Made by a program: the position numbers and the translations under genes. A model generated the notes under the pieces. It had not been told where the DNA came from and did no database searches. It saw nothing but the letters and a program-made list of their open reading frames with translations. From Dendronephthya gigantea (Eukaryota), in the NCBI RefSeq assembly GCF_004324835.1, contig NW_021163015.1:2952323-3016322 (forward strand): a stretch of 64,000 nucleotides of DNA, given 5' to 3'. The stretch's first letter is position 1; every line of letters starts with the position of its first letter. Positions 14,710 through 60,089 of the stretch are shown one piece after another.

Positions 14710-17700
14710 TTAACGTGTATGTCCAGCGTTTGGCCTATTTAAATTAATATTCAGTGAAAGGTTTCTTTTTCTGTTTGGCTCTATTTTTCTTTTCCTAGCA
14801 GGCATTGTGCATTTATCACTTTTCCTAAAAGTCGCCTTGCGACCTGAAGGCTGTGCGAGTGAAGACTTTATACCTGACCGACGGCGCGATATTGCAGTTG
14901 GCTGTACTCTAATTCTCTTGTTTGCACGATGAAGTATTGGTAACATTTTGCAATTTGTGTTTCTGCCAAATGAGACATATGCGGTTGAGAGACTGTTGAT
15001 TGGGGCTTGTCCTCTTGCTTTATTAACGATTTTCTTATAGGTTTCAAGGTACTTGCCGTAGCATTTCACAAAATTTGGATTTCCACTGCGTAACCAAAAT
15101 TCGATGTCACTGGATACTTCTTTGTGGAGTTTGATAACGTCCTCTAGGCTTGTCTCTTGCTCTTCGTGTGTCATATTTGAACATTCAGTTTCTGTGCTAT
15201 TGGGCTCTTCATTTAATGGCACATGTATATCTCTTGCTTTCTCATCAAGAGCCTCCGGATGTGGAATCACCGGTTTTGTCGAATCGAACTTCTTTTGGTG
15301 AACATCTGCGAATTTTTCTGCGCACAAGTCCGGATGGTCTCCTATTGCCAATACCGCTAGCTTGTACTTGTCCATGTGATTTGTTGGAATAAAGTTGCTG
15401 TTGGAGACGCCGTATTTTAGTGCAACTGCAGCTTGATGGGGACAACTGTTTCCATTTTCACCTGCTGGGCAAGAACAGATTCCGATTGACGAGTTCACCT
15501 CGTAAATCTTTCCCTTCTCCTTTCTACTTGGCACATAAAACTTAAAGGGTTCAGTGCTGTCTTGCGTGATTGTGGCGAAATCAACTGTGCTAGCATTTCT
15601 ACCAAAACATCTGGATGCAATGTGCAAATTTTGAGGTTTTCCAAAAGCAAGCGATAGTAACTTACGTTGAAAATACTTGTCTAAGTCCTCAACGATAAAT
15701 CGAAATAGTTCCACCAAGTTGTATGCCCTAATTCGTCGTAATATTATGCACTTGAAGATGAAAATCATAGATTCCGTATAATTATCCGTGTTGTTACCTC
15801 TAGTGATTAGTTGTTTGCGAAGACATAAGGCCCATTCCGACTTTCTTGCCATCGCATTCTTGATGTACTTAAGAAAAATTGCATATTTCTTTGCTGTCTT
15901 GTCTTCTTTTAGTTCTGCGAATAGTTTGTTCAATATGTTTTCGCTTTCAGAAAAGACCAAATTCTGAATCAATTTCATGAGCGGTTTTCGGTCACATAAT
16001 TCTATTTTATGTTTTGACTGCCATAACCATCTCCACGCTGCTTGTAGGAAATGAAATATACAGAGAAGTAATTTTGTTGAACCCCAGGTAGTATTTAAAG
16101 CGCCCCTCTGGGCCGCGTCATCATCCGTTAAGCAAATCCTTGGCCCCTCTTGCGTACCTCGACCACCAAATGCACCCTCTGGAAATAAACTTTTTGCTTT
16201 CCCCAAACAGCTCTCGACTGTTTGCTGGGAGTTATCAGATGTGACCCAGACACATAGTGGAAGTGCTCCTGAAGGGTGGTGCGTACAAAGAAAGTATACA
16301 GGATTGTTGTGTCGGTCAATACTGGCTGATGCATCCAAGAACACCATCTCCCCAGCTTGAGGTAAAGAATGTACCCTAGCCATCAGTGGGGTAACAACAG
16401 CAAGGATTAATGGTTTTTCGGTGCACTTTGTCTTCTCATAACGTTGAACAAAGCATTTACCACCGTCCATAGAATGTCGTTTGTTATAATCTTTCACAAC
16501 ATCTTCCAACTCCAGGAACATATCCACCCCATCGGACGCTCCCTTTGTTTGCTTTCTCCATTTCTCAAACATCCTTCTTGCGTCAGTTGCAGATGGGCAA
16601 TATCGCCGGTCGGCGAGAAGCGTCATTGTCGATGGATCATTCATAAGTAACGACTCGTGATGGTGAAAAGCTTCTGCTGCAGACATGCCGCTCGCGAAGT
16701 AATCGTTAAATGTCTCCACCGTCGCTGGGAGGATTTTAGCAAAGCTCTGGAGATGAAAACAGTCGATACTATGATTGTGAGTCCACCACAACTGAACATG
16801 ACATACGTTACCAACAGAATTTGCTGGTAATAATTTAACAGACATCTTGCTTGGGCAATCTGTCTTCTTATCACGTGCTGTTGATAGCAAGTGCAGTTCC
16901 GTATCATCTGTAAAGGTATTTTTGAGGTTTGTGCCCAACCTCTTTTGACGTTTTTTTGAGCGTGTTTTTTTGGCGTCTTGTTGTTTTTTCGTCAATTTCT
17001 TCCTTTTACATTGGCAAATGTACCACTTTGTCATTAAGACTTTCACGCCTTTCCGTTGGTATCCTCCTTGCGTGTTATATTTTATATTGGTTGTTGAAGT
17101 CAGTTCCGAGACCCATGTTTTTACTTCTTCTATTGAAGTTATATTAGCAATGGTGAAGCATACTTTAAAAGCTTCTTTCGGTGCCCCTGTAAAACACTCT
17201 TTCTCCAGTTCTTCATATTCGTCAAGCTTGTACTTATAGTTTGATGGTAAAATGTTTTGTACATGCGTTGGTAAATCCGAGCTTTCGTTGCTTATTTTCT
17301 CGGTACACTCATTCACATCTGCATAGCAATGATCGTGGATGATGGAATCATGATTTGAAAAAGATAATCCTGCTGTATTTTTTGCTCTTTCGCTGTTACA
17401 AACGCCAGCTGGATCTTGAACACCAGACAACTTTACTTTTTTCGTCGGTTGAAAATCGTCGTCCGAGTCTCCGCAATGTTTCGGCGAGTTCGGACTTGAC
17501 TGCTCCAATCTCGAGGGCGTGTCTCTTCGTTTTACCCCTTTTCTACAACCCGCAGGCAAATCAGGAATCTCGTATACATTGTCATGTTCATGAGATGGAA
17601 GTTTAATTTCTAAATGAGGATCCCCAGCACTGATTTCCAAAATCAGCGAATACCTAAACGATTCAATATCTCCTTGAGTGAAATCCAGCGGAAGACCTAA

Positions 17701-19677
17701 GGAGATATGTTGAGCCCACTTCGCAACAAATACACCACAGTCATCACCATTTGTCTGCTGACTTAGATGCCGACTTGGTAAGATATAGAAAAGCCATTCT
17801 TTCCAGTCAAGAGAGAAATCTTGTGTTTTCGATATGCGTTGGGAACATTCCAAGAAATGTTGCATTCTCTGAAAACCCTGTCTTGCAGAAGCTCCTTCAT
17901 ACAAGGAGTCGAGGTACATCATAGCTCTTAACTGAGGGAATGTGGCCAATAAGCACCAGTGATTACCAAAATTTACCGCACCTAAAATTACATCACTTGA
18001 AAGAATACCATCATACATACTGTGGTACTGATTGTTTTTGAATGTCTCCATCGAAGGAGTTGTCATTTTATGAAATACGTCACTGTTTATTGTCCGCACG
18101 ATGTTACCAAAAGCTTTGCATTTCGTTTCTAGAATCCACATATAATGATTAAGTACGAAGTTATTTAACCATGATCCTGGAAGAAGACTTAAAAGATCAC
18201 TTGAAGTATATCCTTTCAATCTTACATGAGTAGGGGGAGCTTGATCTTCATGCGCTTTAAGTTTGGCATTCTTTACCTGTTGCTCTGACAGTGGCGTATA
18301 TACCAATCCCTTCTTGCTTCTTTCAGTGCGACAAACTCTTGGTAAAGAAAAGGAAGTAGACGGATGATCAACGTAATAATTTGGCGGGATCGAGTCTATT
18401 TCAAAGGATACCTGGTCTGGGGGAGCATTAGAAGTCGTGGCTGATTTATTTATCTTTCTGCTACTGTTTTTCTCGTACACCAAAATATACGCTTCTTGAT
18501 TCAGTGCCGTGAATTCCGATATCTTCAAAACTTGCGAATCGTTTAAGGAATACCATTGGCCATTGCGAAGAACACATGCTGTATAGTGACCAGACTTTGT
18601 TGTACTGCCGTGATGGGAAATAACAGCCACAAGATTGTATTGTTCCTCCAAGTTAACTTCCACATCTTCCATTTCAGATTGCATCTCTTTCATTTTCAGT
18701 ACCCCTGGATATTCGACAAACGTTTTAATTTTCCGTCCCTCCTTTGAGAACCGCAACAACTGAACACAGAAGGCATCCGGAAGTTTTTCGAACACAGTGC
18801 GTTTATACGCCTCCGTTTTCTTTTTACACCTATTTACAAAAAATGATATGACTTTTGCACCCCAAATATTGTTAGCCTCTTTTCTAATTTTAGTATCAGT
18901 GATGAGATCTAAGTTACTATATTGAACAAAGAAAAACTGTGTACTAACAGGGTTTAGTATACAGTACCTATCGCATTCATATTCATCATCCAAATGTTCA
19001 GGCTTATTCAACATCTTAATTGCAGTCTCCAAATTTGTTCCCTGCGAAGGTGTAGTTAATGTAAATTGAAAATCATGGACCAAGCATATGAACTTATTGC
19101 ACACATGCATGTGCATATGTATGTAACCAACTATTAGAAAACACACTATTTCATTGTAGTGAGTATGCAGGATTACATAATGCCTTGGTATTTTTGCTAA
19201 ATTTTTTAAATGTTTCAATTTCATCTGTCCTAGTATAGAAAGAACTAGCAAGTAAAACTGGATCACATTTATAGACTGTAAAGATCTGACCAAAATAGAG
19301 ATAAGTGGGTAGTATTGTTCTTTAGGACACCAATGTAATACCTTTTTTACAGGCAGAGGGAGCAAACTCTCAATGCTAGTGCACTTTGAGATATGACCAC
19401 AGAGAAGACACGTAACCTCACTCCTCAGGCTAAATTGGAAGGATTTTAAAAAAGAAGTATCGCAGTGCGGTGGAACAATTCCATTCTCATAATACTCCTG
19501 AGCAATTAGATTCAGTGCTTGCGTGTAATCCTGGAAAAACTCTGCGGCACATTGCTGCATTCCAGGTTGAAAGCTTTCATTAATGTTTGGCAACTGTGAT
19601 ATCAGTGAAGCTGGCCTTAAAATTCCATGACAGTTTTGTGCCTTATAACCATCAATAAACAGTTTTGTGCTGCACAA
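14710..19677 (-). CDS. Element-encoded giant protein (main exon, 1655 codons): USP deubiquitinase core + Ulp1/SENP protease + putative WRKY/GCM-like zinc finger + MULE DDE transposase + SWIM zinc finger
   Basis: - USP (C19): QQD box (MQQCAAEFFQDY), C-x-x-C (VTCLLCGHISKCTSIESLLPLPV), LRFSKEGRKIKTFVEYP, His box (YNLVAVISHHGSTTKSGHYTACVLRNGQWYSLNDSQV…AYILVYEK).
- Ulp1 (C48): LPGSWLNNFVLNHYMWIL…GNHWCLLATFPQLRAMMYLDSL…QQTNGDDCGVFVAKWA.
- Putative zinc finger: WYICQCK…CHVQLWWTHNHS.
- MULE transposase: MVFLDASASIDRHNNPVYFLCTHHPSGALPLCVWVTSDNSQQTVESCL…ICLTDDDAAQRGAL.
- SWIM: CSCPAGENGNSCPHQ. Confidence 0.85.
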   Translation of the reverse strand: MCSTKLFIDGYKAQNCHGILRPASLISQLPNINESFQPGMQQCAAEFFQDYTQALNLIAQEYYENGIVPPHCDTSFLKSFQFSLRSEVTCLLCGHISKCTSIESLLPLPVKKVLHWCPKEQYYPLISILVRSLQSINVIQFYLLVLSILGQMKLKHLKNLAKIPRHYVILHTHYNEIVCFLIVGYIHMHMHVCNKFICLVHDFQFTLTTPSQGTNLETAIKMLNKPEHLDDEYECDRYCILNPVSTQFFFVQYSNLDLITDTKIRKEANNIWGAKVISFFVNRCKKKTEAYKRTVFEKLPDAFCVQLLRFSKEGRKIKTFVEYPGVLKMKEMQSEMEDVEVNLEEQYNLVAVISHHGSTTKSGHYTACVLRNGQWYSLNDSQVLKISEFTALNQEAYILVYEKNSSRKINKSATTSNAPPDQVSFEIDSIPPNYYVDHPSTSFSLPRVCRTERSKKGLVYTPLSEQQVKNAKLKAHEDQAPPTHVRLKGYTSSDLLSLLPGSWLNNFVLNHYMWILETKCKAFGNIVRTINSDVFHKMTTPSMETFKNNQYHSMYDGILSSDVILGAVNFGNHWCLLATFPQLRAMMYLDSLYEGASARQGFQRMQHFLECSQRISKTQDFSLDWKEWLFYILPSRHLSQQTNGDDCGVFVAKWAQHISLGLPLDFTQGDIESFRYSLILEISAGDPHLEIKLPSHEHDNVYEIPDLPAGCRKGVKRRDTPSRLEQSSPNSPKHCGDSDDDFQPTKKVKLSGVQDPAGVCNSERAKNTAGLSFSNHDSIIHDHCYADVNECTEKISNESSDLPTHVQNILPSNYKYKLDEYEELEKECFTGAPKEAFKVCFTIANITSIEEVKTWVSELTSTTNIKYNTQGGYQRKGVKVLMTKWYICQCKRKKLTKKQQDAKKTRSKKRQKRLGTNLKNTFTDDTELHLLSTARDKKTDCPSKMSVKLLPANSVGNVCHVQLWWTHNHSIDCFHLQSFAKILPATVETFNDYFASGMSAAEAFHHHESLLMNDPSTMTLLADRRYCPSATDARRMFEKWRKQTKGASDGVDMFLELEDVVKDYNKRHSMDGGKCFVQRYEKTKCTEKPLILAVVTPLMARVHSLPQAGEMVFLDASASIDRHNNPVYFLCTHHPSGALPLCVWVTSDNSQQTVESCLGKAKSLFPEGAFGGRGTQEGPRICLTDDDAAQRGALNTTWGSTKLLLCIFHFLQAAWRWLWQSKHKIELCDRKPLMKLIQNLVFSESENILNKLFAELKEDKTAKKYAIFLKYIKNAMARKSEWALCLRKQLITRGNNTDNYTESMIFIFKCIILRRIRAYNLVELFRFIVEDLDKYFQRKLLSLAFGKPQNLHIASRCFGRNASTVDFATITQDSTEPFKFYVPSRKEKGKIYEVNSSIGICSCPAGENGNSCPHQAAVALKYGVSNSNFIPTNHMDKYKLAVLAIGDHPDLCAEKFADVHQKKFDSTKPVIPHPEALDEKARDIHVPLNEEPNSTETECSNMTHEEQETSLEDVIKLHKEVSSDIEFWLRSGNPNFVKCYGKYLETYKKIVNKARGQAPINSLSTAYVSFGRNTNCKMLPILHRANKRIRVQPTAISRRRSGIKSSLAQPSGRKATFRKSDKCTMPARKRKIEPNRKRNLSLNINLNRPNAGHTR

Positions 19678-24300: not shown

Positions 24301-25089
24301 TTATTATCAATTTGCCAGACAATATTTGTGACAATACTATCGTATGCTCCGCCTTTTGAAACTGGGCGTTGATTGGATAAAGAGGCGCGTAATATTACTT
24401 GGAATTCCACGCGCGGCACGAAGTCAAACCACAGTAAAATTTATTCGAAAAACAGGAAGATTAATTTGGCAGGAAGTCAATATCGTCATATCTTCAAATA
24501 GGCTCTTCGCAGAAGTTATAAAGCCATTCGTCGAAGCAATGTGGTAAGTCTTATTTCACAACACATCGAAGCGAACGTAACTAATAGAAGAACGTTGTTA
24601 GCGGCAGAAAACCTTTGACAATAAATATTCAAGAATAAGTGAGTAGATTAAAATGCCTTAAGTGGACATGTGATGTCGCTTTAAGAAAATATGGACGTGC
24701 GCCTTCTAACAAGTCTTGTAATCTTATTTGACATTTTATATCTGTAGTCTGTAAAAGAAGCTAATATTATGATTTAGGTTTCATAAGAGATCTAGGTCTA
24801 GGAATTTTGCTTTTCTCAATATTTCTGATGCGAAGAAAGCAATAAATATATATTAATTTCAAAGCGGGTAGATGTTAGCTAGATTAGGGACAGTTTAATA
24901 CCATGTCGAGTTTCGATAAGTATGAATCTAATTTGTTGCTCGTTCATTCCAAAACAAGGTGAATGAGTTTGTATGTAGATTCACTGCGATTATCATCGGG
25001 TAATATTCCTGCTATTAAAGATTAATAATGTTGCTTGTTGTGTTCAAACAGGTTGTGTTATCTTAACACCGATGAATTAATTCGTCGCA

Positions 25090-26562
25090 ATGATGCAATT
25101 CATGAGAAAACCTGCTGAGTATCATAAGTCGAAGTATACATTCATGGAATCCAAGCCTAGAGCAGAATCAGTCTCTGGTCCGACCAGCCCACGACGAAAG
25201 CTATCTTCGCCGAGCAAAGATGAGTCATGGAGAAGTGACATGTTGAAAGCATTGCAGAACAGCGCTAATCCGGAACCAATTCGAATTGCGTGCATGAAAA
25301 GCAATGTTAATGGACCTGCTCATTTTGGGGAGCTGTTTCATGGTACTCTAACAAGAGATGAAGTCACAGAGTTGCTATCTGGGGGAAATGGGCGATATCT
25401 TGTTCGAGAGAGCAATAGTTCACCAGGAGATCACATACTGTCCTTCAGTACTGGTGGCAATATACTTCATTATAAGCTGTTCTATGATGCAGAAACAGCT
25501 AAATATCACACTGAGTCTGACGAGAAGACCTACAATTCACTGACCGAACTGATGGTCGATATCTTGAACATGCTACGTGTCATCCATCAGTATGGAAGTC
25601 AGATAAACGGATGTGGAATCAGCGGAAATGGAGTGGAAAAAACAACAAAAACAAAGCGTCCATCGTTCACAAAGCCACATAGTTTTCGTATTCATCAGTA
25701 TATGCATCCCAAATGGTGTGATATCTGTCACGCATTCATGTGGGGTCTAATGCATCAGGGAATGAAATGTCAGGACTGTGGCTTAAATGTTCACAAACAT
25801 TGCGTCAAAGATGTTGAAACCAACTGCGGAACCTGTACAGTTGAAACCAGAAATAGATCAGAGTCAAAGACCAAACGTCGAGGCAGACTATCTGTTGATC
25901 AAGGCAAATCTGACGAACTGTATGCTCTACTTGCAAAACACATTACATGTGGCTATCAACTGGAATGTCTAAAATATTTGTCAAGTCTTAAGCAACCAGT
26001 GGCAAACTTTGACTTAGCTACCTTAATGAACCCATGTTACTGTGATAACTGTTGCCACTTGAAGGATTTGGACACTCCTCTATGTAAAACTGGGTCGCCA
26101 CCCCAGGCATACTCGTTACCTCTGGGTTGGTGTCGATTTTGTTTGAACACACCAAAGGGGATGGCTGAGCCGGCGTCGTGGAATGTTGCATATTATTCAT
26201 TGTCTAAAGAAATGCTGCCGAGTATTCTCGAGAAAGGTTTGGGCAATAAAGCAGATTTTTTGGGCTCTGATGGAAAGATCTTTGTGAAGCTCACACCATC
26301 AATCATTTGTGCAGACCTTGACTCTCCTGTTGTAGAATATCAGGACTCTGACTCAAATGAACTCAAGGTAGCAAAGATTGCTTTACAAGTATATGTTAAA
26401 CCTGGGTCATTTCAGACCATGGGTAGAGCTGGGATCTCAACGGAGGAAATTGATCCCTATTTCAAAAGCACGGACATATACTGGGTTATACGAGATAATA
26501 ATAGTATAATACCCTTCGGAATTTTGATTAAGAGGATGAGAATGACTTATAGAAAGTCATAA
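25090..26562 (+). CDS. Intronless gene: SH2 domain + C1 (phorbol-ester/DAG-type) zinc finger + C-terminal PARP/ART-like domain with degenerate catalytic triad (tentative)
   Basis: Single 490-codon ORF.
- SH2: FHGTLTRDEVTELLSGGNGRYLVRESNSSPGDHILSFSTGGNILHYKL (FLVRES-type).
- C1: HSFRIHQYMHPKWCDICHAFMWGLMHQGMKCQDCGLNVHKHCVKDVETNCG (H-x12-C-x2-C-x13-C-x2-C-x4-H-x2-C-x7-C).
- C-terminal: AYYSLSKEMLPSILEKGL…GSDGKIFVKLTPS…DIYWVIRDNNSIIPFGILIKRM aligns to the PARP signature (HGS…ILxxGL…GKGIYFA…S.S…EYIVYD…YLL), with H replaced by Y and Y replaced by F. Confidence 0.7.
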   Translation: MMQFMRKPAEYHKSKYTFMESKPRAESVSGPTSPRRKLSSPSKDESWRSDMLKALQNSANPEPIRIACMKSNVNGPAHFGELFHGTLTRDEVTELLSGGNGRYLVRESNSSPGDHILSFSTGGNILHYKLFYDAETAKYHTESDEKTYNSLTELMVDILNMLRVIHQYGSQINGCGISGNGVEKTTKTKRPSFTKPHSFRIHQYMHPKWCDICHAFMWGLMHQGMKCQDCGLNVHKHCVKDVETNCGTCTVETRNRSESKTKRRGRLSVDQGKSDELYALLAKHITCGYQLECLKYLSSLKQPVANFDLATLMNPCYCDNCCHLKDLDTPLCKTGSPPQAYSLPLGWCRFCLNTPKGMAEPASWNVAYYSLSKEMLPSILEKGLGNKADFLGSDGKIFVKLTPSIICADLDSPVVEYQDSDSNELKVAKIALQVYVKPGSFQTMGRAGISTEEIDPYFKSTDIYWVIRDNNSIIPFGILIKRMRMTYRKS

Positions 26563-27592
26563 TGCTGACAAGTAGTAGCCTTACTACATTTAACAACGAT
26601 AAACAATCTGAACTATAAATTAACTATAAACAACCATAGACTGATTAATGGTAGTGAATCAGATGAAATAATTATGTATATGTATTTGTATTGGTCTTGG
26701 TTGATATTGTAAGGATGATGAATTAATGTTGACTAAATAAATAACATGATTAACTTCTATTCGTGATTATGTCTTCTGTGTCTGTTTGTGGACATATCAA
26801 ATGCTCCATATCAAATGCTCCATAATCCTCCCTCTATGGGCTAAGGCTTCAATATATTCAAACAAAATCTTTGCTTATGATTTTCATTGTTTAAAAGGTT
26901 GAGAAAATCAATTGACCATTTTGAAAGAAGTGAGTGAGGTGTTATATCCCCACTCATATGCCCCTGTTGTTTATCAAGCAAGCTAATATTGACACAACAT
27001 AGGTCCTGGCATTGAAGCATGACTGAGCAGGTTGTTTTAACATTAAACAGACATATTTTTCCAAAAATGGCAACGAATGCAGTATGTTTGTCAAATTTGT
27101 CAGCCTGTTATTTGGCAAATACGCTGTGCCCCCTTGGCTACACACCCCGACAGCAAATATAGCAACTCGAGTCAAAACAGTGTCTTTTGCCCGAAGTAAT
27201 AAAAAGCCGAATAAGTGTTTTCACAAATAGAGTCTAAATAAACTACTGACTGATACCAAAGTATAATTTAGGTCTCGGTTTTGGCCAGCTGCGAGTCCAA
27301 CATTTTGCAGTTAGGAACCGTTTAAAACTTAATTTTTAAGATTTGAATAATAGTATAAAACTTTAAATTAAATTGCTATCTCCTAAATGTCGAAAATTCA
27401 AGTGTTTTCATCTATAAGTATCCGAAAATACGGGAAGTAGTACATCAACGCCACAGTAAACGAACTTTATACTTACATGATATTTTCCCGCCATTTATTC
27501 CTGCCGCCATCTTGGAAATTGATATATGTTCTTGTAATCTTGTAAAATTGAATTATTGAAAATTATATAAAACTCCTGTTTTTCAATGAAAA

Positions 27593-29948
27593 TTGATGGC
27601 AACAAATAGTATTCTACAAGACTTGTATGCGCAAATTTTACAATCTGAGGAGCAAGTCAAGAAGAGGAATACTAAGTTCAAAGCAGGTAGGCGAAAATGG
27701 CTTGGTTGGAAAAATATATTCCCTCAGAATTTGGGCCAATTTTTGACCGACTTTAATGGCTTATTTCAGTCATTCCTTTCTTTGGCAGTGAACGAGGAAA
27801 TCGCCCAGACTCAGAAAAAGACTGCAGAAATAAGAGACGAATTAAAATCGCTTCAAGGAAGTCTTGCTATTCAAAATAACAAAGTAGCTGAACAAGAATT
27901 GCAATCAAAATGGTTAAAAGAAAAGGAAAAAATAATGAAATTACAAAAACATAATCTTGAACAGACGAAACTGGATTTACAAAACACACTGGTGCTTTAT
28001 AGCTTTTATTTATACTTGCAGCCGTATGACTATTTAGATAATAGTACCCTTGTAATTCAACAATAAATATTCTTGCATTTTAGGATAATCATCGGGCTGT
28101 GATTCATTGTGAAAGGTACAGAGCTTTTGTGAAGACGACTCCACTGATGTAAAGAAATATAGGCGAATTCCTTGAATTGTACACGTCCTGTTATCTATTG
28201 TATTAAAATACAACGGAACACGGACTCAAGTTCCCCTAATAATATAGAAGTGGATGCAATTAGCCTCTCTCATGTCAAGATGACAAATATTCCGCCAATT
28301 TTGAGGAAACTCGTTTGTTTTCACATTCGTGATAATACAAAGTAGCAGAGGCGATTTATAATTTTTAGGATTATTCATTTCTGCTATTGATCAGTTGATT
28401 TTGAAAAATTACTTGTTTTTTTACTGTTTAAACCCGTTTAGGAAGCCAAGATATGCGGATGTTTCCTCTCATCGAGAGAAAGCAAACAGAGTTAACAGAC
28501 TTTCCTCATAATGACGTCAAACACGGATAGTCTGATGTTACACGAAGTGTTGGCCAATCAAACTTCGCGTAACATTGGACGCGCTTGACGTCATCGCGAG
28601 AAAGTGTGGCTGAAGCCAATTTGGTTATTGAGGACCTCATACACTCAAGTGTCTATCAATTTTATTGTTTAACATATACCGCTCTTGCTTTCGGAATTTT
28701 CGACTTCCTGAATGAGGTTAAAGGAGGAAGTTAGGAAGTTCGTGGCCCTTTTCAGGCATAAAAAAAATACGAAAACTTTGTATACACGAAAAGTAAAAAA
28801 AAATTATGAAATTACCCCTTGGCGCCCGGTTCTGTTTTTTTACAAGAAAACGTCTTCTTTTAGGCAAAGATTTATTGCCGAATGTGAGGAGTTCTCTTGC
28901 ATGTATGACTTGACTGGAGATGGGAAGAGAAAGCGGGATGAAGCGAAAAAAACAAAACTTGAAGAATTAATGAAAGACACAGACGAACTAAAATCAGGTC
29001 TCTTAGTAAATATTATACAAGACTTATAAGAAGCTATTTGTGGACTCTGCTTGCTGTTGGCCACCATCTTAGAGTACAATATAATTGATATAATTCCAAG
29101 TTTATATTTATAACTAATATAATTTAACTAGAAATCGCCTCGATCAAAAAAGCAAAAACTGAAGTTGACGTGTTGGAAAATAAGAAAGAGAAGTTGCTTA
29201 ATGAAATCAAGAGATTGGAGTCGAAACGTGAAGGCAAGATATTTTTTTCTTCCTATAGATAAATCAAGACGTGATGCTATAGGAAAATAGCTCAAGTCTA
29301 CTTCCGATATTGAGCCTTTAGGCTTTAGCTTATAGCCAAATCATGACCACCACTATTTTAAAACGAATGATGTTATTCCTCCCACAACCACCGCCTAGGA
29401 GTGAGTCATCAGGCTAATTTTGTATTTTATATTGTATTTAGAAAATGATAAAGATATTGAAGCGGAAAAGGATAGGACGGAAAGACTGAGGCAGGAAAAA
29501 CAAAGGCTCTCAGCGAAACTTAGGAATGACCCAGAATTAAAAAGGTTAGAATTGATCAACAGAACTTTACCGGAAATAACCAGAATTATGTGAAAGATTT
29601 GAGGTTGCTTTTTTAAGGTTAACGGCCGAGTTGAAGAATTGCAAGGAGGAGAGCTTGAATTTGGAAGGAATAAATGATGCTATGGATCAGGAACTCAATG
29701 AATTACGCCAGAAATATTATCAAAAGCAGCTACGAAAACAGAGAGAACAGAGAGACAAACAGAGACACTTTGAGCAACAGAATCAGCAGACAAGAATAGA
29801 GTCACAGATACAAACGCAACAAAGATCAAAGCCAAGGACAACCCCGAGGCCCAAGGATCTAAGCAAGGCTAATCAGAGTAGCGTGTATTTTGAAAATGAA
29901 ACGCAGGGCAAAGGCAAACAAAGGCCGTTGTTTGGAAGAAAAAAATAA
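27593..29948 (+). CDS. Coiled-coil protein gene(s), multi-exon; exon boundaries and whether one or two genes uncertain
   Basis: Coding-like segments rich in K/E/Q heptads:
- 27593-~27990: MMATNSILQDLYAQILQSEEQVKKRNTKFKAGRRKWLGWKN…LQGSLAIQNNKVAEQELQSKWLKEKEKIMKLQKHNLEQTKLDLQNTL.
- 28861-28999: QRFIAECEEFSCMYDLTGDGKRKRDEAKKTKLEELMKDTDELKS.
- ~29125-29210: IASIKKAKTEVDVLENKKEKLLNEIKRLESKRE.
- ~29440-29590.
- 29631-29948: …ELNELRQKYYQKQLRKQREQRDKQRHFEQQNQQTRIESQIQTQQRSKPRTTPRPKDL…GRKK*.
I did not recognise a family. Confidence 0.4.
28480..28600. promoter_or_regulatory. Putative promoter module with two palindromic CRE (TGACGTCA) sites and CCAAT boxes
   Basis: 'aatgacgtcaaac' at ~28510 and 'cttgacgtcatcg' at ~28586. 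'ggccaatca' at ~28552 and 'agccaatt' at ~28616. It lies ~100-200 bp upstream of the coding-like segment that starts at 28712. Confidence 0.4.
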
Positions 29949-30040: not shown

Positions 30041-32355
30041 TCAACCTGTATCACTGTCGTCACTAAATGTTTCAGCCTCGATTTCATAGCACTGTTCTGT
30101 CACACCAAATTGTCTGTTCCTCGCTGCAGCTGCTGTTGCTACAATCGATGCAAACGGATTAGCGCCATAACTCATTGGCCCCATAAATGCCCGTTCTTCT
30201 GCACCACGGTCATTTGATGGTTTACAAACGACGTCTTGGATTCCGGTCATTTCATTCTCTCCATTTTCATTACATGGAAATGATTGCTCATTGTTCTGAG
30301 AAATATTTGCCTCTCCTGGAACTGTACCAGCCTGTTCTTCATCACTTGAACCGTCAACACATGATTCTTTTTCATTCTTACCACTTTTCATATCGACTCC
30401 ATATCGAGCGTCGTTCTCTTCAATCTCTTCAAAATCAGCTGTGTCTCTTCCATTGTCTTCACCCTCAACAGCGCCGAATTTCTTTAACAATAAAACCCTT
30501 GGAATTCCGACCATTTTTTCCCCATCCTTCGTTGCTAAAACAGACTTCAGTTCCTTAAGAAGATGTCTGCCTTCCTCTCTCATTTTTTCCTCTCTAAATA
30601 ATTCTTCTCTTCCTAATAATGATTCATTCTGTTTTTCATCTTCACGACCAGACGTTGTTTCTCCTTCAAACATCTGGTCTGGAACAGGTTCTGCTTCTTC
30701 CATCAAGTTGAATATCCGAGCATGCACATCTTCTTGTTCAACCAAGCTCCCACTTGTTTTTTTTTCCACGATATTTGTCTTCTCCTCAGATGGGCTAAAA
30801 GTAATTTCCTCAAGTCTATTTTGACTTTCGTGCCAACACATGCTGATTTTCTCTATCTCTTGACCAATGTTTAATATCTGCTCGTTTACCTTAGTCAGAT
30901 CGGAGCTTGCAGGGTCTTGAGTCGATTCAGAAACGAGCTTATCAAGTCTTTCTTCCATTTCAACAGACGTTTTGCAAGCCTGCTGGAGGTGTAAGGTCAA
31001 GCTACGTAGAGACAAAATGAAAGACGTGTAGACAGTTTTATCACACGGTGGTACATGTCCATGGTTTTCATCAAATATGCGAGCAGGGATATCCAATTTG
31101 TGAAATTTATAACATTGATCAAGACTATCAAACAACTTTTCCCTCCTTGTTTCAATAAATCATCAAAATATTTAAACTCCAACAACTCGTCATTTCGTTC
31201 CGACTGTTGTAAACAGATTATCGCGAGCATCAAATTTATTGCTGCACAGAACAACAATGAGGATTGGTTGCTGCCAAATGTGGCAAACACTTTCTTCAAT
31301 CTGATCAACGTGTAGTCGTGATCCTGCAAATGTTCCTCGCTCTGCATAATGCCCTCGTTTACAATCTTGTTAAGCTCTTTGGAAAGCCAACCTAAATTAC
31401 CACAGTCAGCACTGAATTTCGTATCAGGGAGTGTAATTTTCTTACGAAGCAGATCAATGTAGTCGCTCATTTTAATAAACAAGCATTTTCTTAATACCAT
31501 ACATTGCTTAATTTGGGATTCTAATCTGGTCACCGGTGCTGTAGGATTAGCAATAATATGCCCGCGACTTATAAGTTCCTTCTCCTGAATAAACAAGATT
31601 GATTTTCGTATTAGCATTAGAAATCCTGCTGTAAACTTGGTGTACTGCAGAATTAATACCATATTCTTCTTAAGGATGTTAATCTTTTTCTTCACTTGTA
31701 GAGAATACAATTTTAGAACTCCCCAAATTAAAAGAACCGAGACGAAAAAGAATGAAAAAAAATTCGACGAATTGGCGTTGGAAAAGCTACCCAAAATTAA
31801 AGCAGCCAGCATTATAGCTCCCGCAATAAACTTGCTTTCGACAATGTCTAGCAAAAAAGAGTTTTTCGCTTCTGGCAATTTGTTCACATCAGTTTTACGG
31901 TCAGAAAACACAACACTGACTTCATCGTCCTTGGTCTTGGAATCAATTGCGTTCTCTGTACATTGCTCAAATCTGTACAAAAGTTCCAAATGATCGTCTG
32001 TTAACAAGCCCGATGATTTTATTATGGCTACGCAAGAGCTGTAGCTGTAGCATGAGATCTTTTTTGATACAAAAGAGGGCAATAAAATGCCTAAAACAAA
32101 TCTTTTAGCCCAATCTATAATGTAGTTAACTCGCTCCTTTAAATTTCTGATACTAAAATTTCCGCAATCCTCTGGTCTCACGCTCCTATTGACGATGGAT
32201 TCATATAGTTCATCGCTGTTATTCAACGTTTCTACGTGAAAATCTGTAAAACCAACTTCGGATAAATGTCTATACAACGGTGAATTGTCAAAAACTACGC
32301 CTTCGTCGTCCGCCATATTGAAAATTTTCCCGATTTTAGGGTTCATTCTGTGCAA
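30041..32355 (-). CDS. Uncharacterised transmembrane + acidic/coiled-coil protein (~800 aa) encoded by two overlapping minus-strand ORFs that differ by a frameshift near 31130
   Basis: ORF 30997-32355 (MHRMNPKIGKIFNMADDEG…) contains two hydrophobic helices (FIAGAIMLAALILGSF, FFSFFFVSVLLIWGVL). ORF 30041-31135 (…FDSLDQCYKFHKLDIPARIFDENHGHVPPCDK…) is very acidic, with Glu-rich coiled-coil segments. The frames switch at a GGAGGGAAAAG run: '…FDDLLKQGG' then 'KLFDSLDQ…'. No family recognised. Confidence 0.45.
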
Positions 32356-54229: not shown

Positions 54230-57200
54230 TTGCTACAGTTCCTATCTCGCAGAATGAAGGCAGCGATCAGTATCTTTGTTCTCTACCATGCACTCGTCTC
54301 ATCGGCGTTTGATCTCTATGGTTCTATGGACGACGCTCGAAGCGCAATCATGTCTTTTTACGACTCAACGCACGTCGCACCCCGTGTTCTGGCAACGGAG
54401 AAGCCAACAGTGAACACCCCAATACCAGGTAGTTTCGTCACAAGTCTGGCAGAAGTACCAGACGTTATTCGCCCTGTTTCTGTTAAAAAATTTTCGAAAC
54501 GGAAACACACTATGGTAACATCAATGGGTGGAACGGGTCCTAGGTTTAGACCATTTCCACGGCGAAAATATAAACATCATTCTGTCATTTCTGCGTGGAG
54601 AAGACCTGCTCCTAAGTTCAAACCACTTCTCAAACCAATTCCAACCGTCGCTTTGAGAACGTCTTCCCCAGTTGTTCGCTCCAAACGAGTCTCGTTGAAC
54701 AAGTTCGCTGAAGCTATCGAAGATATTGAGAAAGCCTTGGCCGATGCGCAAATTGTGAGTCGCGTCAGGCACGACGCAACTAGGTTGAGGAAACTAAAAG
54801 ATCTTATCAAAACAGCTGTTGAGAAAAGAAGTTATCGTTTTGCGCGTAAGGCAATCGGTGAAGCGATGTTCACGATTAGAAAAATGAACGAGCAAAGGTA
54901 AGAATTGGAATTGCAAATGTGAAATATAAATGCATATTACATGAAAACGGTGTTAGATGGGCTGAACATGCCCTCGAACATGCCCTAGCTTTAAGCCTTG
55001 GCGTTTGTTCAAAAGTCGAAGTTGCGTTTGTATTTTAAGGTTGTCCTTTGAGTCATAACAGGCTAGCCTAGTTCTTACCAATTGTGTTGGCCTGTGCCTC
55101 AAAATCGTCTTATATCTAAAGTCTGGTTTCGACGCATTTCTGTCGAGACAAATGCAACTAAGACAATATAAGATGATAATCGGAAGGCGATATAACTAAA
55201 ACGAGGCTTATCATACTGTTATGTATTTGCTCAATTACACCTGACAAAAAAGGCCTAGGCTGGCGGGCAGGCAATTGATTATTTTAATGACTGTATATTT
55301 TATCAAGGAAAGCAACTGGACGTAGAAAGAGAAACATTGTCCTGTCATCAAAGGATTTTCTTGGCAGCGTTAGGCGGACAATTGGTGTATCGGCTTTCAA
55401 TGATCTTCTTGCGATGCAAGGTCAAGTCACACTCATGTTTGCCATCGACGATACGGGCAGCATGCGTGAGGAAATTGAAGCCGCAAAAAGAATCGCAACG
55501 TCTATCGTGAATCAGCAACGAGTGGAGCCGGTTGATTACATTCTGTCACCGTTTAATGACCCAGGTAATTAGCATTAGTTGCGGTCAAGTCAGTTCTACG
55601 CATGTGCTGTGTTTATGGTACACAAATAGTCAAATATTAACCTTGAAGTGCACAACATTGCTTAGTCAGACACGATGCTTCTAAATTACTTGTCGAATCT
55701 CTTGCGGCGCATCTAAGGTAACAGTTTTTTTGGTGTTTTTTTGTTAGGTACTGGTCCAGTAACCTATTGTTCAGAGACCGAAAAAGATCGATTTGTGAGA
55801 GCCATTGCTTCTCTTTCACCCAATTCTGGGGGCGATTGTCCTGAACTGGCATTCCAAGGAATGAGTGACGCAATCGACGCTGGACCTCAGCTAGACTCAC
55901 CTTTGTACGTATTCACGGATGCCGGACCAAAAGACGCAACCGAAGACAAAGTACGATACGTTAAAGAGACTGCACAGGCCCAAGGACTTGTCGTTAATTT
56001 CTTTGTTGTTCAGAATACTGCGTGTACACAAGGGGTAGACATCTCGTCGTTTCACGAAATAGCGCAAGCCACTATGGGTCAGGTTTATGAATTGAAAAAT
56101 TCTCAGGAACTTGATGATCTTCAAGGGTTGACAGCAACCTCGCTTGGAGGGACTGCTGTCGTAGCAAATGCAGTCAGTGATAATCAATCTTCGCGTAAGA
56201 AACGGAGCTCTTCCCAAACTGCCAATTCGTATTCAATCACGGTTGATGACTCTATAGACACCCTGGTTGTATCCGTGACTGGTGACAAACCCAAAGCGAA
56301 TATGTGGAGCGTGTCGCTGACCTCGCCCACGGGAACGATTGCAGGCGTCACTACCACAAGTAACTTAGACCAAGGAACCGTGTACCAGATATCCAAACCG
56401 AATGTAGGGATTTGGAATTTAGGAATCAATGCTGATCCAAATGTGAAGTATGATTTCTTTGTGAAGGGATCCAGTGCGGATAACATCGATTTTGAAGTTT
56501 ACTTTGTCAGGACCACAGTTAGAAGAGGAGTGTCTACTACAGTTCCCATCACTGCACCTTTACTAGGTAAGACTATGACCTTTGTGTATAGCTTGCGTGA
56601 TTCTTCGTTATATGACAAGATAAGTAATAAATCAAAGATGATCTGAGATAGATTACACACCACAGTTAATAGATTACACTGAGTGTGGTATTTCTGTGAG
56701 ATATTGTATGTTTATAGTTGGCAATAAATAGGATAATAAAATTTTTATATGTGGAAGAAAATATGGCGATTACTTCAAAATTTATCTTGGTCTTGTGTAG
56801 TAGTTTTTTGTTGTAGTAGTTTATTGTATAACTCCTATGAACAACTCTTCAATAATTGTGTTCATTTTCATTTCAGGCATCGAAGCTGAAGCTATCCTGA
56901 CTCTGGGTGGCGTGGGCCATGTCGACCAAAGTACTCTGAGAGCAGAACTCGTGGACTTGTGCGGCGATGTCATAACGCCAACCAGATCCGTCTCTTTCAC
57001 ATCGAAAGACAAAAAAGGGATCCGCCATTCTTTCAAATTCTTCCCACCAAATCAAGATTTCAAAATTAAGTTGAAGGGGCGTACGAAGAAAGGACATGCA
57101 TTCGAACGTATTTCTCACTCTCCCATCAAACCTGAAACTCTGATTGTTAAAGTTGTGTTCGCACGAAACGATTACACTATGACACAAGGTGGAGCAGGTT

Positions 57201-57454
57201 ATGTAATCTTCATGATCGAAAACTTTGGAGAGAGCGAGGTTGTGGATATAAGCTCGTTTGGTAGCATGGGAACAGTCGAGAGACAATCGCGAAGCACGGC
57301 CCTAGCTCGTAAAGATCGTAGAACGTCGTTTTCCGTCTCATTCCGAGGAAAAACGAAGGCAACACGAGGTTTGACGGTTACGATTGTTGTGTCGGTTAAA
57401 GGACGAAATTCAGGCTCCAAATCTGTCATGTCTGTTCCATTGTTAGTTGTCTAG
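54230..57454 (+). CDS. Secreted VWA-domain protein with signal peptide, basic propeptide and furin (RRKR) site; 4 exons
   Basis: - Exon 54230-54898: MLQFLSRRMKAAISIFVLYHALVSSA… (signal peptide), Lys/Arg-rich.
- Exon ~55297-55567: ATGRRKRNIVLSSKDFLGSVRRTIGVSAFNDLLAMQGQVTLMFAIDDTGSMREEIEAAKRIATSIVNQ… (start of the VWA domain, MIDAS-like DxTGS).
- Exon ~55745-56567: GTGPVTYCSETEKDRFVRAIASLSPNSGGDCPELAFQGM…YVFTDAGPKD…FFVVQN….
- Exon ~56870-57454: …IEAEAILTLGGVGHVD…VMSVPLLVV*.
All junctions are GT-AG. Confidence 0.65.
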
Positions 57455-57728: not shown

Positions 57729-60089
57729 CTATCCATGACATTCATTTTCATCATCTTCTAAATTGCTAATATTATTCTCAAGCTTTGTGAAATTATTGCG
57801 CTCCTTTTTCAACTGTTTGATGTATTTTTCAAAATCTTTTCCATCACAACGAGTTTCTTCTTCCAAAATATCTTGTTCATAGTCGTTCACTGCAGGTAAC
57901 ATTGCGTCATTCATCAAACACACGTCATTTCTGTCTCGTCGACTTCTCTTTGGGCTTAACCACTCATCGATGTATTTATCCATTGTCGGATTCCCTGTTC
58001 CAACGTCTTCTGGTATCTCGTTGTCCAGTAAATCCTCCACAATACGCGACTGTAATTCGTCTTCTGACAACTCCGATTTTCTCGCGAGCCACAGCGGTCG
58101 TTTGACGTTCGGCGAGCTCGGAGCGGTTCGTGGAGGTAACGCCGGTCGTTCGTGGCCTTTCGCGATAATCTTCCGAGCAACAGGCGAGGTAGGTTGACTT
58201 TTAGATGTGACTGTAGTGAAGAGCGCCTTGCGGCATTTCTTTCCAGGTCGTGGCTGGTAAACCCAATTAGGATTATCATGTTTGTGTCTTTCCTTCAACT
58301 CGTTTGCTTCGTCAAAATAAGGTTTTTGTTCAATGCTCGGCAGCTCGTTCCAAATATGACCCAGTCTCACGCTGATCTCAGCATTACTGGCATTTGGAAA
58401 TCTTAAAACAAAAAAAATCTTGAAACGAATCTCGAGTTTCTAGCAAACTTTACAAGCAATACATCATCATTGCTACTACCTCTTTCTTAAGAAATGAAGA
58501 GTCCTTGTTTACCTTTTTGCAATCGAAGCTCTGTTCTTCTTCGCCCAAACCATGAAAGCGTTCATGGGTCTCTTCACGTGAGGTCGATTGCCATGGTGAC
58601 ATTCCACCTGCAAACTCTGATAAGTGAAAGGCATTCTGAGGAATGTCTGACTCATTGGGTCGGTATCAGGCGGCGTTATCCAGGCTTTGAACCTTGGCTC
58701 GCTTTGTGATTTTCTCGTCAGGTCACTGGCTTTCAGCGGCAGTGTCGTTGGTGGTGGGCAATATGGATGAGGTGTTGGTGGACTAGGTGTGTCAGTCTGG
58801 TTTTGCATTGTTGGTGTTCGTGATGGTGGTAGTGTACTGGCAGCTACACTGGCTGGTGTTCGTGATGGTGGTAGTATACTGGTTGCTACACTGGCGGGTG
58901 TTGAAGATGGTTTATTTTCTTGAGTGGTGATAGGCGACCTTGGTGTGGCGGTTACGTTTGGTACTGTTGGTGACTGTGGTGCTTTAACAAGAGATGGACT
59001 GGTCATGTCTACCGTTCTTGTTGTTCTCGATGAGGTTATTGGCGACCTCTTACCATCTTGAACTGTATGAGCTGTGATTATAGTTTTGGCTGTTTTAGGC
59101 GTGTATCAGGTAAGATTGGTGTTTCTGTTGTTACTGGAGGTGAATCTGGTGCATTAGGTGTTGACCTTGTTGATACGATTGATAACAATTTAAAGCCAGA
59201 ACGGATAGGGGTGGTTGTTATGGATGGAGAGGTTACCTCCGGTTTCGAGGAACAAACGTCTGGCATTTGTACGGCCTCTAATCGTTCAGAGAAGCAAACT
59301 TGATTTGCCGAACCATTACCTTCCTCTGAACAAACACTGTCTTTTGATTTTGCATTCCGTGAGGCATTTCTTTCGCCTATTAACTTCGCAGTTTGTTTGT
59401 TCCCTTTTTCCAATTTCATCACTTTTAGGTTTGTTTGCTTCTGAGGTCGACGTTCAGTAATTTTAATATTTTGTGATGAGGTTGAGGAAATCGTGTCCTT
59501 TTCATCACACAAGCAGATATGTTTTTCACATTCCTCTTTCAACGATTTTTCTGATTCTTGCAATGACTTGAATGTAAAATGTTCGATTTGCACCGAATAA
59601 TCGCAAGAGGTGTTTTCGGAACTATTTTTCTCCCTCATTGAATTTTTATCAAGTTTCTCGCTAACCCTTTGGTCTTCTCGACCTTTTTCTTCCATCGTTT
59701 GCCGTGTAATTCTTTGATTCAAGTCTTTAGATGCTGTTCCAGGACTCATTCTATTTAGGAAAGTACATCAAAGCAAATTATTTTTCTTTATTTTCGAAAA
59801 GATCTTATACTTCTATACGACTTCTCCCTTTCACTGAAGGTGGGCCTGTCTTTATCGAAGTAGTTTAAACTATTGCTGGCTTTTATAGCATTTGAAAAGC
59901 TCAGAACGGAATGAAAATTTTAACATACCTGTACTTGTAGTCGGCATGGCTTGATACAACGTTCGTAGTGTGCGCGTTTTGCTCTTTCAAACACTGCTTA
60001 GCCAAGGACGTTTTAGACATTTTCACTTTTGAATATCTCCTCTCGTTCGTACGTTTTCCATTTGAACTTAGAAATTGTTTAACAGACAT
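57729..60089 (-). CDS. SOX-like HMG-box transcription factor with long Ser/Thr/Pro-rich region; >=4 exons, one frame discontinuity unresolved
   Basis: Minus-strand exons:
- 59928-60089: MSVKQFLSSNGKRTNERRYSKVKMSKTSLAKQCLKEQNAHTTNVVSSHADYKYR.
- 59078-59749: Ser/Lys-rich.
- 58509-~59090: …TSPSLVKAPQSPTVPNVTATPRSPITTQENKPSSTPASVATSILPPSRTPASVAASTLPPSRTP…HVKRPMNAFMVWAKKNRASIAKR.
- 57729-58370: …NAEISVRLGHIWNELPSIEQKPYFDEANELKERHKHDNPNWVYQPRPGKK….
The HMG box is split by an intron, as in SOX genes (RPMNAFMVW…NAEIS..LG..W..L…EK.PF..EA..L…H….P.Y.Y.PR). Confidence 0.7.

Follow-up and report, generated by a model that had tools for sequence, protein, structure and literature searches.

A chimaerin-type SH2-C1 module joined to a predicted triad-less NEURL4-type ADP-ribosyltransferase-like domain in an intron-free cnidarian coding sequence

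A 64-kb stretch of the genome of the octocoral Dendronephthya gigantea (contig NW_021163015.1, positions 2,952,323 to 3,016,322; the window in what follows) was analysed with a focus on the gene LOC114516329. An open reading frame (ORF) scan of the window returned a frame of 490 codons plus stop at 25090..26562 on the + strand, which runs from ATG to stop without interruption, as originally predicted, and whose product is identical to the D. gigantea protein listed at NCBI as "uncharacterized protein LOC114516329". On these two grounds the ORF was taken as a complete single-exon coding sequence (CDS). Its product is a cytosolic protein of three modules, namely a chimaerin-type front part, a C1 domain and an ADP-ribosyltransferase (ART) fold of the NEURL4 type devoid of the catalytic triad, and probably acts as an adaptor with a binding output. 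The original prediction, a SH2-C1 protein ending in a degenerate PARP-like domain, was supported as an overall interpretation and refined as to the type of the C-terminal domain, the old age of the gene and a probable intron in the 5' untranslated region (UTR). Features of the gene given below lie on the + strand.

Pfam analysis of the whole protein recognised an SH2 domain (PF00017) at residues 83-155 (25336..25554; E 3e-12) and a typical C1 domain (C1_1, PF00130) at residues 197-247 (25678..25830; E 7e-14) and nothing else, in agreement with the predicted SH2 domain with a YLVRES pocket and complete C1 zinc finger. In an alignment of 25 homologues, the phosphotyrosine-pocket residues R89, R106 (within YLVRES, residues 103-108) and H127 were invariant or nearly so, and the same was observed for the full H-C-C-C-C-H-C-C set of eight zinc ligands in the C1 domain and for P207, W218, G219 and Q223, residues of the type that marks typical C1 domains responsive to diacylglycerol (DAG) and phorbol esters. 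The C1 domain is ~60% identical to that of chimaerins. Ahead of the SH2 domain, a chimaerin-like motif at residues 46-69 (SWRSDMLKALQNSANPEPIRIACM; 25225..25296) aligns with the chimaerin structures 1xa6 and 3cxl (beta2-chimaerin residues 23-45), and its W47, L52, L55, PEPIR and AC are invariant in the 25 homologues. The best matches among PDB sequences were beta2-chimaerin 1xa6 (E 3e-34) and alpha/N-chimaerin 3cxl, spanning the pre-SH2 segment (residues 46-69), the SH2 and the C1 domain, followed by PKC entries matching through their C1 domains only. Since the pocket, the zinc ligands and the DAG-site residues are all retained, this sensor half looks chimaerin-like and functional.

Comparison with the chimaerins (alpha2/beta2; 1xa6, 3cxl) showed the N-terminal motif, the SH2 domain and the typical C1 domain in identical order, whereas the coral protein has a shorter SH2-C1 linker, a single-exon CDS and, at the effector place, an ART-like domain instead of a RacGAP domain. 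The C1 and ART-like domains are joined by a basic, Ser-rich linker at residues 248-284 (25831..25941; ...KTKRRGRLS...), whose conservation is low except for the basic-Ser patch. This patch is kept as a basic stretch followed by Ser, RRGRLS in D. gigantea and PRKKxS as the hexacoral consensus, and in sequence it resembles a basophilic kinase or 14-3-3-type site.

The original prediction had stated that no RhoGAP domain is present and had considered a longer spliced gene with a RhoGAP exon downstream. The RhoGAP profile PF00620 was not matched by Pfam anywhere in the protein, and for the C-terminal 248 residues not even at E<=10. When three fish chimaerins were compared by tblastn with the whole 64-kb window, only their residues 26-262 matched, at 25228-25827, and their RhoGAP part (residues 263-466) gave nothing better than E~3; the protein thus carries no recognisable RhoGAP domain and no such exon was found in the window. 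All 25 aligned homologues stop at the same place, after the ART-like domain, which, judged by domain order, occupies the place of the chimaerin RacGAP domain.

An ordinary chimaerin with a missed RhoGAP exon, a recent retrocopy, a pseudogene or an assembly chimera would account for the chimaerin-like SH2-C1 module, for the lack of introns in the LOC114516329 CDS and for the automatic database name 'N-chimaerin' of one homologue (P0033). These readings are contradicted by the tblastn matches to residues 26-262 only, by the stop after the ART-like domain in 25 of 25 aligned homologues, and by the intact architecture and single-exon CDS that are also present in Nematostella, Montipora, Xenia, Hydra and another octocoral. 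The downstream neighbour argues in the same direction, as the next + strand gene (exons 27596-29702), a multi-exon coiled-coil gene of CCDC172-like type, matches the gene downstream of the Xenia orthologue (L005 5809-7007), and by this match the local synteny is conserved within Octocorallia. The ordinary chimaerin was rejected, being practically refuted by the absence of a RhoGAP part from the window, and a recent retrogene, a pseudogene and an assembly artefact were rejected because the same single-exon architecture occurs in five genera; taken together, we attach hardly any probability to these readings.

The C-terminal ~200 residues had been predicted to be PARP-like on the basis of three motifs aligned to PARP1. 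The motifs are present and conserved in the homologues, and structure prediction followed by fold comparison upheld the ART fold. An AlphaFold2 model from 16 cnidarian sequences reached a predicted local distance difference test score (pLDDT) of 65 and was replaced by a model from a 40-sequence family alignment with a pLDDT of 90.5 and a predicted template-modelling score (pTM) of 0.88, all five models scoring at least 88. Both models returned PARP-family proteins as top structural matches in the same ranking, followed by Tpt1/KptA, diphtheria toxin and other ART toxins. The top match was PARP16 (PDB 6hxr/6hxs), at 14% identity, and the top-50 Foldseek matches were all PARP or TASOR, with a best E of 4e-5 and TM-scores of ~0.4, a value due to the extra Cys-rich subdomain of ~90 residues carried by the query. 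The modelling therefore supports a diphtheria-toxin/PARP-type ART fold for the C-terminal domain. Its core covers residues 364-482 (26179..26535) and contains the motifs WNVAYYSL (beta1), KLTPSIICADLD (beta2 and helix), LQVYVKPGSF, EEIDPYF, DIYW (beta5) and IPFGILIK. PARP16 is a mono-ART with an H-Y-Y triad and a tail-anchored protein of the endoplasmic reticulum without SH2 or C1 domains; it is an active enzyme in which the His and the triad Tyr are retained, whereas the coral protein has neither residue. The pseudo-PARPs PARP13/ZAP, TASOR and plant RCD1/SRO1 differ from the coral domain in having no detectable sequence relationship to it, other partner domains and no comparable Cys-rich subdomain.

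The Pfam part of the prediction did not stand in the same way. The PARP profile PF00644 was not matched, the C-terminal 248 residues giving no Pfam match at all at E<=10, and searches of PDB sequences with a coral-only and a family-wide profile returned no PARP, only chance matches with E>1 to a Ni/Fe ABC-transporter binding protein and a guanylate kinase. In these searches the PARP relationship is invisible at the sequence level and the domain has no sequence link to any solved structure; we know of no solved structure of a NEURL4-type domain.

The relationship that did emerge was with NEURL4. A coral profile of residues 272-490, built from 16 cnidarian sequences, was scored against 1.84 billion representative proteins and recovered 560 proteins at E<=1e-3 and 154 at E<=1e-10, with the domain at the C-terminus in most of them. 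Among these, the crinoid neuralized-like protein 4 (P0046), which carries six Neuralized repeats and SPRY, matched with an E of 6e-30 over profile positions 7-210, while Pfam scans and source names identified other matches as fusions to SPRY/Neuralized and ARM, to Mind-bomb SH3 repeats and ARM, or to leucine-rich repeat (LRR) modules. The coral protein shares with NEURL4 a profile similarity over the full length of the domain, the Cys cluster and the motifs GW[CS]RF, [ST]PSI, LQVxxxPxSY, xW and P[YF]GLLxK. It differs from NEURL4 in lacking Neuralized repeats (Neuralized PF07177 was not matched by Pfam in the LOC114516329 protein) and SPRY repeats, in being fused to SH2-C1 and in having the His, the Gly-Thr, the motif Tyr and the Glu replaced in all members.

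The Cys-rich segment that had been predicted to precede the domain is present and conserved, and belongs to the NEURL4-type domain itself as its N-terminal subdomain (residues 285-351; 25942..26142). It holds C287, C293, C316, C318, C321 and C322 together with the GW[CS]RF motif, and C287, C293, C316, C318, C321, W347 and F350 are kept in at least 90% of the 40-sequence family alignment, NEURL4 included; the subdomain probably contains a structural zinc site. We thus assign the third module, by profile similarity, to the NEURL4-type ART-like domain family as a diverged, triad-less member that is not a predicted enzyme. This family is said to have been predicted by de Souza and Aravind in 2012. 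Its absence from Pfam is stated in the literature (PMC7955679), and NEURL4 is regarded as 'PARP-like' rather than as a member of the PARP family (PMC10450202).

Some of the distant members have unusual layouts. In P0062 (Glandiceps talaboti XP_077997139.1), a hemichordate 'PARP14-like' protein with the architecture RRM-KH-Macro x3-WWE, the NEURL4-type domain (residues 1733-1962, E 2e-24) stands after the three Macro domains and WWE, in the place of the PARP catalytic domain. With H-G-T and E-x-E-W intact and no Pfam PARP domain reported, this protein looks like an ART-family swap within a conserved architecture. Its domain keeps H-G-T, SPT..Y and E-x-E-W in the context of an ADP-ribosylation enzyme, in contrast to the phosphotyrosine/DAG context of the coral protein. 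P0044 (1448 residues) has a receptor-like layout in which numerous LRRs of extracellular type are joined to part of the NEURL4-type domain, present as two tandem copies. P0043 (Dimorphilus gyrociliatus, 1588 residues) carries the domain twice, with His-Gly-Thr at that site in one copy and Leu-Pro-Ile in the other, from which it appears that the triad was lost more than once in the NEURL4-type family.

The fate of the catalytic residues was examined by aligning full-length domains, 38 of anthozoan type and 70 from other family members, to the profile. The resulting register agrees with that published for human NEURL4 (HGS/LLS/ELE) in PMC7955679, where the catalytic residues of the NEURL4 type are given as H-Y-E[D-Q] and as H-L-E in human NEURL4. 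The AlphaFold2 model fits this register: a strand ends at the His position and leads into a helix, and a beta-strand has the Glu position at its front edge. The original prediction had the His and the Tyr replaced, and the alignment showed the following replacements. At the catalytic, NAD (nicotinamide adenine dinucleotide)-binding His in beta1, where H-G-[ST] has become Y-S-L, the coral protein has Y369 (26194..26196); the other members have H in 54, G in 59 and T in 53 of 70 domains at the three positions, and the anthozoan-type members have L (16), Y (12), M (6), F (2), V (1) or C (1), followed by S in 38 and L in 32. The aromatic position of beta2, equated with the triad Tyr in PMC7955679 ('LLS' in human NEURL4), is occupied by K400 (26287..26289), a Lys in all 38 anthozoan-type members, the other members having F (21), Y (10) or K (9). 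C407 (26308..26310) stands at the Tyr of the family motif SPSIxY, with Cys in 37 of 38 anthozoan-type members versus Tyr in 48 of 70 others, and this position is probably equivalent to Y907 of PARP1 in SKSANY. Finally, Y464 (26479..26481) takes the place of the catalytic Glu, E-x-E-W having become D-I-Y-W, with Tyr in 38 of 38 versus Glu in 61 of 70. Neither His nor Glu was kept in any of the 42 SH2-C1 members, including four of medusozoan type, and both were kept in 52 of the 66 other domains.

The loss of these residues was not accompanied by decay of the surrounding sequence. TPSIICADLD, EEIDPYF and IYW are nearly invariant between octocorals and hexacorals, and the KLTPSIICADLD region, EEIDPYF and IYW rank with the best-conserved stretches of the protein; given such near-invariance around the replaced positions, the ART-like domain is under purifying selection despite the loss of the triad. 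K400, C407, D409, D411 and Y464 are fixed in at least 37 of the 38 anthozoan-type members.

From the loss of His, Gly-Thr and Glu we infer a pseudo-enzyme that would neither bind NAD nor transfer ADP-ribose. ARTs of the H-Y-E clade without the His (PARP13, and PARP9 alone) fail to bind or use NAD productively, and the pseudo-PARPs PARP13/ZAP, TASOR and RCD1 work as binding modules. By analogy with these three, the coral ART fold, which lacks the NAD-binding His, is most likely a binding module. Chimaerins are recruited by phosphotyrosine and DAG through their SH2 and C1 domains, and by analogy the coral protein would be a membrane-proximal adaptor performing coincidence detection of the two signals. 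Its SH2 domain would dock it onto tyrosine-phosphorylated receptors or scaffolds and its C1 domain would fix it to DAG-containing membrane, while the N-terminal motif may keep the protein closed at rest, as in beta2-chimaerin. As output, the dead but strongly conserved ART-like domain would bind a partner protein or possibly a NAD- or ADP-ribose-like ligand.

Several points weigh against this adaptor with an inactive ART-like domain. The near-invariant K400, C407, D409, D411 and Y464 line the former NAD cleft and could reflect retained ligand binding or new catalysis. The replacement of Glu by Tyr alone leaves ART activity possible, as exemplified by the H-Y-Y enzyme PARP16, and the chimaerin-like autoinhibition is taken over by analogy. 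An hhalign comparison of the family alignment with PARP1 gave a probability of 1.6%, which is not significant; the same weak run reproduced the register above, placing H862 over Y369, S904/Y907 over S404/C407 and E988 over Y464, a correspondence to be read as a lead only. Finally, an enzymatic activity of NEURL4 has been reported in mitochondria by a single study (PMC8932523) and is termed 'suggested' elsewhere (PMC9027952).

A rival reading is a non-canonical but active enzyme under the control of phosphotyrosine and DAG, either an ART working with other residues or a NAD- or nucleotide-using activity. The ART fold of the AlphaFold2 models, the retention of His and Glu in most relatives and the fixation, rather than drift, of the cleft positions to the new residues K400, C407, D409, D411 and Y464 (at least 37 of 38) would fit such an enzyme, and PARP16 (H-Y-Y) shows that a mono-ART can be active with Tyr in place of the Glu. 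Yet the His position is filled by variable hydrophobic residues (L in 16, Y in 12, M in 6, then F, V and C), as expected of a former NAD contact released from constraint, the Gly-Thr next to it has been lost, as have the two acidic residues of E-x-E-W, and we know of no ART of the H-Y-E clade that works without the His. We regard an active enzyme as quite unlikely, and the rebuilding of the former NAD cleft around K400, C407, D409, D411 and Y464 into a neo-functional ligand-binding or catalytic site would be an equally long shot. If it were true, an ART-fold effector would for the first time be seen in direct connection with receptor tyrosine-kinase and DAG signals, forming a second-messenger or ADP-ribose-linked arm of phosphotyrosine signalling specific to cnidarians.

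The same conserved cleft residues and the ADP-ribose-related context of the family, as in the Macro and WWE fusion of P0062, speak for the proposal put forward in the original prediction, that the pseudo-ART domain is a reader binding ADP-ribose, poly(ADP-ribose) or NAD without transfer and coupling tyrosine-kinase/DAG signals to ADP-ribosylation. The His that contacts the adenosine ribose is lost, and to our knowledge no pseudo-PARP acts as a dedicated ADP-ribose reader, so that this proposal appears doubtful. The adaptor with a protein-binding ART-like output remains our preferred explanation.

The same architecture was also sought in related species and was found in corals, anemones, jellyfish and Hydra. 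Thirty-eight full-length homologues (P0002-P0039) were collected, the named ones coming from octocorals, stony corals and sea anemones, and four further SH2-C1 representatives occurred among the distant matches, including P0184 from Hydra vulgaris (LOC105843462) and P0050 from the scyphozoan Sanderia; P0039, P0093 and P0117 group with the Hydra/Sanderia members at 46-59% identity. No non-cnidarian SH2-C1 member was present in the best 150 of the 560 representatives. The CDS consists of a single exon in Nematostella, Montipora, Hydra, Xenia and the second octocoral, and also in P0039; the architecture and the single-exon CDS are thus common to Octocorallia, Hexacorallia, Scyphozoa and Hydra. 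As the single-exon CDS extends across the cnidarian groups, the SH2-C1-ART gene is judged to be ancient and cnidarian-wide, its intron-free CDS predating the cnidarian radiation, and not a recent retrogene. Of the original suggestion of a retrogene or a lineage-specific invention, a recent retrogene was thus not borne out, the gene with its shared intron-free CDS being found across Cnidaria; retroposition, if any, would have been ancient.

The intron-free state is established for the LOC114516329 CDS only. An in-frame TAA (25078-25080) sits 9 nt 5' of the ATG, and the frame is therefore not extendable 5' within the same exon; this TAA also closes a mini upstream ORF, ATG-AAT-TAA (25072..25080), which is kept in the scaffold of the second octocoral (L006). 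Farther upstream, octocoral alignments revealed a conserved non-coding block (24390..24660), a putative promoter with a short 5' non-coding exon, which has 77.5% identity with L006 and, in its core, 77% identity with Xenia (L005), a conservation between octocorals on a par with that of the CDS. The block contains a TATAAAG box (24517-24523) and the donor-like sequences GTAAGT (24544-24549) and GTGAGT (24639-24644), all invariant in the alignment of three octocorals. Similarity to L006 picks up again at 25038, and a T-rich tract followed by AAACAG and then G forms a putative 3' splice acceptor (25046..25052), 38 nt 5' of the ATG, the T-rich tract and AG/G being kept in the three octocorals. A promoter and a short non-coding exon followed by a 5' UTR intron of ~0.4-0.5 kb are thus probable. 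Downstream, a consensus AATAAA polyadenylation signal is located 174 nt past the stop (26736..26741).

Consensus matches to transcription factor sites were also noted in the promoter-like part of the upstream block (24390-24545). The motif GGAATTCC (24401-24408) corresponds to a Rel/NF-kB-like palindrome near the TATAAAG box and is only in part kept in Xenia. Two CAGGAAG motifs (24453-24459 and 24470-24476), invariant in the three-octocoral alignment, are of ETS type, and their conservation in the three species is striking.

Other features of the window were noticed as well. The statement that all its other genes are intron-rich is not strictly true, as an uninterrupted ORF of 1655 codons occupies 14710-19677 on the - strand. 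Its product matches a USP/UCH ubiquitin hydrolase (PF00443, E 4e-32) and an Ulp1/C48 SUMO-type protease (E 7e-9), matches a MULE transposase weakly (E 9e-4) and has a Cys/His motif resembling SWIM, and it looks like a Mutator-like transposon ORF carrying two deconjugating proteases. At 30041-32355 (-), two long ORFs overlap in different frames; one encodes 452 residues with a Vezatin match (PF12632, E 5e-11) and the other an acidic tail of 364 residues. They are read from sequence as a vezatin-like gene whose two large exons are separated either by a very short intron or by a frameshift. Exons encoding VWA_4 and hemicentin galactose-binding-like domains are present at 55741-57454 (+), and a Sox-like gene at 57729-59006 (-) has its HMG box split over two ORFs, which indicates an intron inside the HMG box.

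Each domain of LOC114516329 belongs to a known family; what appears new, judged by homology, is the architecture and the inactivated NEURL4-like branch, restricted to Cnidaria among the best 150 of the 560 representatives. The combination of SH2, C1 and a NEURL4-type pseudo-ART domain was not found in the searchable literature, whose coverage did not extend to the founding surveys of de Souza & Aravind 2012 and Aravind et al. 2015, and searches on the gene identifiers of members and on chimaerin together with Nematostella returned nothing relevant. Being absent from Pfam, the NEURL4-like ART family is invisible to routine annotation, and in the databases its SH2-C1 members now bear the names 'uncharacterized', 'N-chimaerin' or 'Protein kinase C'. 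The value of the present analysis lies in this annotation correction and in a well-defined hypothesis, the function being one that we infer, rather than in a demonstrated new mechanism. It shows that at an early stage of animal evolution the chimaerin sensor module, consisting of the N-terminal latch, SH2 and C1, came to be combined anew with a wholly different output domain, and it enlarges the NEURL4-like ART family, itself poorly characterised, by a conserved triad-less branch found throughout Cnidaria. As Nematostella and Hydra are genetic models, the gene offers a tractable entry to what pseudo-ART domains bind, and it is relevant to the question of a coupling, at any time, between phosphotyrosine/DAG signalling and modules of the ADP-ribosylation type.

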